From IMG/VR virus record IMGVR_UViG_3300010262_000019: a DNA stretch of 23,885 nucleotides. The stretch is one strand, 5' to 3'. Of the stretch, positions 8-3,157 are shown piece by piece. Under the pieces are notes generated by a model that searched no databases, was not told the origin of the DNA, and saw nothing but the letters and a program-made list of their open reading frames with translations. The DNA is from a virus. Taxonomy: Duplodnaviria > Heunggongvirae > Uroviricota > Caudoviricetes. Numbering within the stretch: position 1 is the first letter of the stretch; every line of letters starts with the position of its first letter. The position numbers and the translations under genes were made by a program.

Positions 8-214
8 ATGCCAAACGGTGCTGTGGATGCGTTAAAGGAAGAATTAACTCGACGCATCAGTAAGCGTTATGACGATGTAGAGGTGATCGTAAAAGCCACC
101 AGCAACGATGGCCTTTCTGTTACACGCACCGCAGATAAGGATTCTGCAAAAACTTTTGTTCAGGAGACTCTGAAAGATACCTGGGAATCTGCTGACGAGT
201 GGTTTGTTCACTAA
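8..214 (+). CDS. DinI-family (DNA-damage-inducible protein I-like) protein; 5' end probably lies upstream of the window
   Basis: 68-aa ORF whose C-terminal part (...[17 protein letters not shown]) resembles the conserved DinI C-terminus as I recall it (...ETWESADDWF...). The frame stays open back to position 2, so the true start is probably outside the window. Confidence 0.7.
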
Positions 215-273
215 TTAACACGTAAAATCGGTAACGGCTGGAAATCATTCAATACTCGCACTATCGAAAGTTC

Positions 274-320
274 GCCAGCCAGCCGCAGCACGTTCTTGCA
301 TACGACGTGGCTGCGGCTTC
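274..320. terminator. GC-rich hairpin between the convergent DinI-like and invertase genes (candidate bidirectional terminator; no clear U-tract)
   Basis: Inverted repeat agccgcagcacg (281-292) / cgacgtggctgcggct (303-318) forming a stem of about 12 bp with one bulge, sitting between two convergent stop codons (214 and 358). Confidence 0.3.
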
Positions 321-357
321 CAACATTAGACAAATAACTCTTTAAATTGCTTTTAAA

Positions 358-921
358 TTATTTCGTTTGAATGCCAGTAACAGGAAATCGTTTATATAGG
401 GTTGATAGCCCAACGTTATAGATACGTGCAACATAACGCCGTGATTTCCCTGCCGCTATGAGCGCTCCCATCTGTTGCCACTGCTCGTCGCTAAACTTCG
501 GTCTACGCCCACCAATCCGGCCTTTGGATCTGGCAATAGCCAAACCAGCTAAAGTTCGCTCTCTATTCAAATCAGATTCATACTGCGCAGCAGAAAGAAT
601 ATTACGGAAATTATAGCGACCACTTGCTGTTTTCAGGTCTACACCATCTGTAATACTCCGAAAATTAACGCCTTTTTCGTGCAGATTTTGAAACATCAAT
701 AGCGCATGTAGCACATTTCTCCCTATCCGATCTAGCTTCCAGACAATCAACTCATCTCCACTTTTCATCACCGAAATTAATTCCTTTAACACAGGGCGAT
801 TAGCTGTTCTGCCACTGGCATATTCTTCATAAATTCGCTCACAGCCAGCTGACTCAAGTGCAAGACGTTGCAACTCTGTATCCTGATGATTTGTTGATAC
901 ACGAACATACCCGTAAATCAT
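358..921 (-). CDS. pin: Serine recombinase, site-specific DNA invertase of the Pin/Gin/Cin/Hin family
   Basis: 187-aa ORF with N-terminal MIYGYVRVSTNHQDTELQ (catalytic-serine resolvase/invertase motif) and a C-terminal helix-turn-helix region (GKSRRYVARIYNVGLSTLYKRF). It lies immediately beside a tail-fibre invertible segment, as gin does in Mu and pin in e14. Confidence 0.9.
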   Translation of the reverse strand: MIYGYVRVSTNHQDTELQRLALESAGCERIYEEYASGRTANRPVLKELISVMKSGDELIVWKLDRIGRNVLHALLMFQNLHEKGVNFRSITDGVDLKTASGRYNFRNILSAAQYESDLNRERTLAGLAIARSKGRIGGRRPKFSDEQWQQMGALIAAGKSRRYVARIYNVGLSTLYKRFPVTGIQTK

Positions 922-926
922 GAGTG

Positions 927-953
927 CTTCTCCTGTTGTAAAAACAGGAGAAG
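927..953 (-). promoter_or_regulatory. Perfect 11-bp inverted repeat overlapping the invertase Shine-Dalgarno sequence (candidate RBS-sequestering hairpin or operator)
   Basis: cttctcctgtt (927-937) and aacaggagaag (943-953) are exact reverse complements with a 5-nt spacer. On the minus-strand mRNA the GGAG of the invertase RBS lies inside one arm, a few nt upstream of the ATG at 921. Confidence 0.4.
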
Positions 954-980
954 AGGCGAAATATCACCTGATTCAGAAAA

Positions 981-1006
981 ATATTTGAAAGGTTGGTTTG
1001 GGAGAA
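981..1006. repeat. Left crossover site of the invertible segment (gix/hix-like 26-bp site)
   Basis: atatttgaaaggTTggtttgggagaa; positions 993-1007 are the exact reverse complement of 2854-2868 (15 bp). The site has the half-site/2-bp-core layout typical of Gin/Hin-family recombination sites. Confidence 0.6.
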
Positions 1007-1489
1007 GGCTCTGCATTACCGGTTGGGGTGCCTGTTCCGTGGCCTTCAGCCACTCCGCCAACAGGCTGGTTGAAATGCAATGGTGCGGCTTTTTCTGCTG
1101 AAGAATACCCGGAACTGGCAAAGGCTTACCCGACCAATAAATTGCCTGATTTACGTGGTGAGTTTATTCGTGGCTGGGATGATGGACGTGGAGTGGATAG
1201 TGGGCGAACGCTGCTTTCAGCGCAAGGAGATGCTATTCGAAACATTACTGGCGGTTTTGGTCAGTTGCGCGTAAACAGCGAAATTAATGCAATTGTCGAT
1301 GTTCAAGCTGTAAGTGGGGCTTTTTACGGAGGTACCTAAGTCCGGAATAACATCAATGTATCTATGACATACGCTAATGACCGAAAAATCCGACAAGATG
1401 TTCACTTCTCGGCGGCAAATGTTGTTCCAACAGCAAATGAAAATCGTCCACGTAACATCGCCTTTAATTATATTGTGAGGGCCGCATGA
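987..1489 (+). pseudogene. Promoterless alternative tail-fibre C-terminal cassette (silent orientation), interrupted by an in-frame TAA at 1337-1339
   Basis: The frame opens right after a stop at 986-988 with no ATG, and the crossover site lies at its 5' end, so it can only be expressed after inversion fuses it to the constant fibre N-terminus. It encodes ...PVGVPVPWPSATPPTGWLKCNGAAFSAEEYPELAKAYP..., a motif typical of fibre C-terminal domains. After the TAA the same frame stays open for 49 codons and ends ...RPRNIAFNYIVRAA, which resembles the C-terminus of the expressed fibre (...[12 protein letters not shown]). Confidence 0.5.
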
Positions 1490-2509: not shown

Positions 2510-3157
2510 TTATCTTCCGATCGCTAAATAGCCGAAAGCAGCTGTCGTTACTGGCGTTACGCCGCTAAAACCCAGCACTCGTGTCCCTGTTCTGGACCGA
2601 CGTAATGAGTCCTCCTGAACAGTGCCAATGAAAGCCGTTGATGCTGAACTACGTGGCATTGCTATAAAAATCATGCACTGTGATGGAAACGGTATGGGAA
2701 AGGTAATATCTGTGTTTGAAGCTCCAATCGCCCCCATCTGGATAATTGTCCCGTCTGGAAACCTGATCCAGATTGCATCCGTTGAGATTCCCTTTGTCCA
2801 CGAACTCATATCAGGGATCTGATTTGCACCTATGCCAACATCCCTTTTTGCCGCTTCTCCCAAACCAAGGTTTTCGAGAGCCGTTTTCACCGTGCCATCC
2901 GATTTGATATCACCAAACGGATTCTTGCGGCTTAACAGCAGCGCACGAAGCGCGGTAAGCAGCTGGTCGTGCCGCGCCTTCTCCAGACTGGCACCGGATG
3001 CCTCCACCACGCTGCAAAGCTCCTCCTGCAACATGTCAAAGTAGTCATCATCCAGATCGGTGGCAGGCGTGCCGGTCTGGGGGTTACCACGGGTAAAACC
3101 GTTCTTACCCGCGCCGAACTTATCCTTCTGCGCGGTTTTCGTGTCTATACGATGCAT
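2510..3157 (-). CDS. Short tail-fibre protein: constant N-terminal part (about 97 aa, outside the invertible segment) fused to a variable C-terminal part (inside it)
   Basis: 215-aa ORF with GGAG about 8 nt upstream of the ATG at 3157. The crossover site falls in the codons for ...ALENLGLGE..., and the C-terminal end ...[12 protein letters not shown] is fibre-like. Position matches the last structural gene of a Mu-like tail cluster. Confidence 0.7.
2855..2880. repeat. Right crossover site of the invertible segment, located inside the fibre gene
   Basis: ttctcccaaaccAAggttttcgagag: an imperfect palindrome (9 of 12 half-site positions) with a 2-bp core, whose left half is the inverted copy of 995-1006. 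Confidence 0.6.

Follow-up and report, generated by a model that had tools for sequence, protein, structure and literature searches.

In the Mu G segment (S/U versus S′/U′), which is turned by Gin, and the P1 C segment, which is turned by Cin, a constant fibre N-terminus is combined with one of two variable C-termini, and each variable C-terminus has its own chaperone. The e14 P segment of E. coli K-12 (stfP-tfaP-tfaE-stfE-pinE, 1,797 bp) with its invertase PinE has a layout of invertase, silent cassette of the collar type, a convergent pair of Tfa genes and expressed fibre. The same layout is found in the stretch of DNA analysed here (23,885 nucleotides, IMG/VR record IMGVR_UViG_3300010262_000019; referred to as the window), an SfV-like E. 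coli prophage in which 1,876 bp (993-2868) form an invertible tail-fibre segment of the Pin/Gin type. By its sites and layout this system is closest to the e14 P segment and by its enzyme to Mu Gin, on a backbone of the SfV/SKA5 type; it is a textbook Gin/Cin/Pin-type invertible host-range segment and no new kind of system. Like the Mu G and P1 C segments it pairs each variable C-terminus with its own chaperone, but its fibre, at 215 or 261 aa, is far shorter than theirs and belongs to an SfV-like backbone with a Mu-type baseplate. Whereas e14 is a defective element, the head and tail module of the prophage in the window is complete and SfV-like, and K-12-type genomes match the window cassette only over its first ∼200 nt at the megablast level. 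The window also differs from the e14 P segment in having a premature stop codon in its silent cassette, by which one of its two states, in contrast to those of Mu G and P1 C, would be defective.

The backbone is shared with SfV and SKA5 (Mu-like tail, HK97-like head), which are 97.9% and 99.0% identical to the window, respectively, each over 71% of its length, and a DinI-like gene (8-214) lies at its left end. SKA5 has the same invertase, its annotated DNA invertase gene being 97–100% identical to the invertase stretch of the window per 100-nt bin, and the same position of the invertible segment. Both cassettes of the SKA5 segment (OR670062.1) differ from those of the window, however, with only 43–60% identity per 100-nt bin in the cassette cores, and on this comparison of sequences the contents of the segment appear to have been replaced wholesale between two very close relatives. 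The window belongs to ERZ27241761:k141_6106, an ENA metagenome contig assembled from short reads by MEGAHIT, with which it agrees exactly over 7,157 bases. A second contig of 20–50 kb with the same fibre, invertase and chaperone as the source contig is on record. In a second sample the same invertase and cassette start are present at 99.8% identity (ENA ERZ27254724:k141_253155, equivalent to window 169-1296), and this contig breaks at window position 1296, 41 nt short of the stop site and within the stretch in which the cassette variants diverge, which may reflect co-occurring cassette variants in that sample.

The invertase (358-921, minus strand, 187 aa) is a Pin/Gin-type serine DNA invertase with Pfam Resolvase (E = 1e-36) and HTH_7 domains; its residues 1–181 align with the Mu Gin structures 3uj3 and 4m6f (E = 1e-56), and the catalytic serine motif YVRVST is present. 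Two crossover sites bound the segment. The left one (981-1006) consists of an outer half at 981-992, a central TT at 993-994 and the inner half GGTTTGGGAGAA at 995-1006, and the right one (2855-2880), which lies within the fibre gene and is read in frame as ...ENLGLGE..., of the inner half TTCTCCCAAACC at 2855-2866, a central AA at 2867-2868 and an outer half at 2869-2880. The core common to both is a 20-nt inverted repeat (988-1007 and 2854-2873) of 90% complementarity. The sequence TTGGTTTGGGAGAAGG (993-1008) is identical to the repeat given for the e14 P segment (PMC12529663), and the e14 repeat from the same source agrees with the right site at 15 of 16 bases. Inverting the segment in silico joins the constant fibre N-terminus in frame to GSALPVGVPVPW..., and the inverted arrangement is found in L002 (a 261-aa fibre) and L017 (a 250-aa fibre), the window and L018 having the opposite orientation. 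The first of these, E. coli Res13-Sevr-PER07-33, is a close SfV-like relative in which the counterpart of the silent cassette is expressed as an intact, annotated 261-aa fibre. The features of a Gin/Cin/Pin/Hin-type switch that we looked for are therefore present as far as the serine invertase, the paired inverted sites, the in-frame fusion and one chaperone per cassette are concerned; the exception is the completeness of both alternative fibres, which is a defect of one member and no difference in the kind of system. A sequence-only reading of this locus had raised a locked switch as one explanation for the stop codon, a suggestion that finds no support here since the alignment of the invertase with Mu Gin runs from one end to the other, its serine motif is present and the two crossover sites seem undamaged.

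In the assembled orientation the expressed tail fibre (2510-3157, minus strand, 215 aa) is composed of a constant part (2869-3157), which encodes the ∼98-aa N-terminus and lies outside the invertible segment, and a variable part (2510-2868) assigned to Gp53-like_C by Pfam. It is called as a gene on the source contig and follows a homologue of Mu Gp48/YmfQ. Its Tfa chaperone is encoded at 2063-2506 on the minus strand (Pfam Caudo_TAP, E = 1e-32), and that of the silent cassette, a protein of 200–201 aa, at 1486-2091 on the plus strand (Caudo_TAP, E = 6e-32). The exact protein of the silent-cassette chaperone occurs on 14 contigs, and wherever its neighbourhood is shown an intact collar cassette adjoins it, the source contig excepted. 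A recombinant cassette variant with a different middle (250-aa fibre) is joined to the same chaperone gene in L017, L019 and L024–L026.

The silent cassette before its stop (995-1336, plus strand) comprises the collar domain (Pfam Collar PF07484) and the start of a hypervariable middle. Its frame, entering at 989, reads KVGLGEGSALPVGVPVPWPS...AFYGGT, with the opening KVGLGEGSALP, and then meets TAA at 1337-1339. The cut-off remainder (1340-1489, plus strand) continues in the same frame for 49 sense codons (VRNNINVSMTYANDRKIRQDVHFSAANVVPTANENRPRNIAFNYIVRAA), ends in ...VVPTANENRPRNIAFNYIVRAA and is closed by a TGA at 1487-1489 that overlaps the ATG (1486-1488) of the Caudo_TAP chaperone gene as ATGA; in all this the sequence is as the sequence-only reading described it. 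A further claim, that the extension resembles the C-terminus of the expressed fibre, did not hold up, since BLASTP gives E = 0.19 over 9 residues, which is not significant. We rejected a kinship of the two fibre tips, which belong to different families (Collar PF07484 and Gp53-like_C PF21882). The silent-cassette chaperone has its own GAGG 8 nt 5′ of its ATG, so that it could still be translated without coupling. Promoter-like sites between 850 and 2200 number 4 against 2.3 expected from shuffled sequence, with no excess before the silent cassette, and separate expression of this cassette was rejected as these sites do not rise above the shuffled expectation.

If the cassette naturally ended at 1339, the open frame downstream would be a product of chance. 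The open run is indeed unremarkable when taken by itself, as its composition-based probability is ∼0.05 and 12% of the stop-to-stop intervals in all six frames of the whole window are at least 49 codons long, a chance expectation of 5–12%, and the gene caller used on the source contig called no gene there. The run is therefore weak on its own, and we count the extension as coding because homologues with TCA in place of the stop read on to the same ATGA junction. None of the homologues examined ends at 1339, the 49 codons are unchanged in two independent records described below, and the 22-residue end is invariant among cassette variants and matches the C-termini of T4 gp37 and gp12. These observations refute a natural end at 1339, which we regard as next to impossible.

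The homologous cassettes that we examined, among them those of 24 complete E. coli genomes, seven metagenome contigs, twelve IMG/VR contigs and four near-identical segments, all have TCA (Ser) at the position of the stop codon, and those that were read go on to ...VVPTANENRPRNIAFNYIVRAA. The two codons differ at base 1338, which is A in the window and C in every homologous locus read. Over the cassette, four aligned E. coli loci show TCA against the TAA of the window and no indels. Among 5,426 complete genomes of E. coli there was no 100% match to a 56-nt query spanning the stop; 24 of these match it with one or two mismatches, and PGAP annotates uninterrupted phage tail proteins there. TCA was read directly in all seven metagenome contigs and is present in 12 of 12 IMG/VR contigs, where it is followed by 50 codons to ...NIAFNYIVRAA. 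A 41-mer around the site, with the site itself left open, had no match in the species-representative genomes and is uninformative. The comparison with homologous cassettes that the sequence-only reading had proposed as a check thus gives one answer: all those examined have the serine codon and none naturally terminates at this place.

The closest records narrow the difference to a single base. TCA was read directly in the four near-identical segments (L014, L018, L020 and L022), and in two of them, E. coli CP098996.1 (L014) and Logan SRR33896482_213 (L018), base 1338 (C versus A) is the sole difference from the window over 1,876 bp, with zero differences in the stretch 1340-1489; L020 and L022 have one or two further differences besides this base. 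The 163-aa protein obtained by restoring the codon is exactly GenBank WGB59511.1, and the truncated 113-aa and 211-aa products have no exact match among ∼15 billion proteins, an absence that fits a private allele and is no proof that the base is real. There is no second record of the TAA allele among those examined. As two independent records are alike except for base 1338, we take the stop to be a nonsense change from C to A that is private to the window, the unexpressed cassette being intact in all other respects. This bears out the earlier proposal of a single nonsense mutation in a once-intact, chaperone-coupled cassette, with the intact 261-aa fibre of L002 as a further witness. The switch, the cassette and the 1.9-kb segment (99.95% identity) are already public, and what is new is the stop-creating base only.

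A lone C-to-A transversion without further decay nearby means that the change is either very recent or not real. If the A at 1338 arose by an error of sequencing or assembly, or came from a minority variant that entered the consensus, the true prophage would have TCA and its cassette would be intact. The sequence comes from a MEGAHIT short-read k141 metagenome contig, the TAA allele is unique among the records examined, and the base concerned is all that separates the window from two other records over 1,876 bp, all of which would be expected of an error. C-to-A changes are moreover a known oxidative-damage artefact of library preparation. About 4% of the possible single substitutions in the segment would interrupt one of its four ORFs with a premature stop, and ∼1% of them do so in this cassette. 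On the other side, 1–3 real substitutions per 1,876 bp separate the near-identical segments of other records from one another, the consensus substitution error of short-read assemblies is roughly 1e-5 per base, and the flanking sequence has no other anomalies. Because real variation at this level lies far above the error rate, a real change is likelier than an error, and we consider an erroneous base rather unlikely, though well worth keeping in mind. A real, recent and probably neutral nonsense mutation in the silent cassette is in our judgement the probable explanation, and we hold it with good confidence.

With the stop in place, the fibre formed after inversion would be 211 aa long as compared with 261 aa when intact, and it would stop 50 codons short of its homologues, in agreement with the expectation of the sequence-only reading that inversion would yield a truncated fibre, the in-silico fusion being in frame. 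In an alignment of three cassette variants, those of the window, L017 and SKA5 types, an invariant N-terminal collar part of ∼85 aa and the invariant last 22 residues (VVPTANENRPRNIAFNYIVRAA) are common to all. Between these invariant ends lies a hypervariable middle of ∼55–65 aa, which in collar-type cassettes is likely a receptor-contact region. The Collar domain (PF07484, E = 7e-16) occupies residues 108–155 of the post-inversion fibre. Since the stop falls in the hypervariable middle, the 211-aa product is without part of the variable region and the whole of the invariant C-terminus.

Over its full length the cassette can be aligned with 9cuy, a solved short tail fibre (E = 5e-28), and the cassette's C-terminal motif NIAFNYIVRAA matches the last residues of T4 gp37 (2xgf: ...NIAFNYIVRLA) and gp12 (1ocy). 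All three of these structures resemble the window cassette in having Collar at its start and the terminal motif ENxxxNIAFNYIVRxA. In contrast to these structures, the collar-to-C-terminus part of the window cassette measures ∼60 aa and has no HxH needle repeats, and the stop precedes its terminal motif. Tips of the gp37 type have a chain that turns back to the collar domain (PMC12609058). The C-terminal strand, (E)NxxxNIAFNYIVRxA, is encoded at 1424-1486, past the stop, and the ORF as it stands is without it. Judging from conservation and the solved homologues, we infer that the truncated chain could not complete its domain, fold or trimerise into a working receptor-binding tip, and that it would probably also lose the surface on which the chaperone acts.

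These observations suggest the following course of events. As assembled, the fibre gene (2510-3157, minus strand) specifies a fibre with the Gp53-like tip and is followed by the gene for that tip's chaperone, and the alternative collar-type tip and its chaperone are silent on the other strand. In the silent tip a private and very recent C-to-A transversion at 1338 would have turned TCA (Ser) into TAA. A flip of the segment by the invertase would then fuse the ∼98-aa constant N-terminus to a tip that ends at 211 aa, and from there on the switch would alternate between a working and a defective fibre. The simplest origin of such a mutation would be neutral decay, the cassette being unselected as long as it is silent in the prophage. 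If the base is real, the prophage makes one working fibre type only, virions of the other orientation are probably defective, and the locus illustrates on a small scale how alternatives in phase-variable systems escape selection as long as they are not expressed.

A real stop could instead be kept by selection, either because the segment serves as an on/off bet-hedging switch between virions with working and with defective fibres and not as a two-receptor switch, or because a truncated or chimeric fragment serves the lysogen, for instance by hindering the adsorption of other phages. The invertase and its sites look intact, so that flipping is still possible, and inversion products of the homologous Pin segment (StfE2, e14 P segment) reportedly prevent T2 from adsorbing (PMC12529663). 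StfE2, however, is a chimera of another kind, with the start of stfE and the end of stfP, and the allele occurs in one contig only. As the segment is otherwise unchanged relative to the intact alleles, nothing points to persistence or spread of the TAA allele. Selection for the stop, in either form, is in our view very improbable. Finally, readthrough, a suppressor tRNA or a programmed frameshift could carry translation past the stop, in which case the full-length fibre would still be made. Apart from the intact frame past the stop we found nothing in favour of a bypass; the homologues have a plain sense codon, TAA ends 8 of the 28 genes in the window, and there is no slippery sequence around GGT ACC TAA GTC. 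Since TAA serves as an ordinary stop in the window and a sense codon stands here in the homologues, we rejected recoding and give it almost no credence.

The segment itself was compared across its different surroundings. It is 99.84–99.95% identical across L014, L018, L020 and L022 despite different backbones, which include two SfV-like prophages with another invertase, a myovirus (Phage_Wedge1, Sheath_initiator) and a P1-like element. In the P1-like context (L022) it lies beside DarA and LydB genes. Identity to the other backbones ends 1–6 nt from the 2-bp crossover points, at 991/992 on the left and 2872-2874 on the right, and the segment therefore behaves as a module that is exchanged at the crossover sites themselves.

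The main import of the finding is correct annotation, with little beyond. The ORFs at 998-1339 and 1364-1489 should be annotated as one disrupted cassette and not as separate genes. The 41-aa ORF after the stop (1364-1489) is identical to GenBank MZR61096.1, which comes from a 524-nt contig and is labelled 'integrase, partial', evidently a mis-annotation of a cassette end. Cassettes in the silent orientation (window 998-1339 and its counterparts in L001, L004 and L014) are annotated as free-standing 'phage tail proteins' of 163–177 aa, with a TTG or other start within the crossover half-site; such genes are incomplete, being fragments that lack the constant N-terminus. The 90% cluster returned for the fibre fragments also contains NrdI proteins (P0004 and P0012), apparently an oddity of the clustering. 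At their 3′ ends (2063-2091), on opposite strands, the convergent chaperone genes share 29 nt, an overlap that is also present in related loci.
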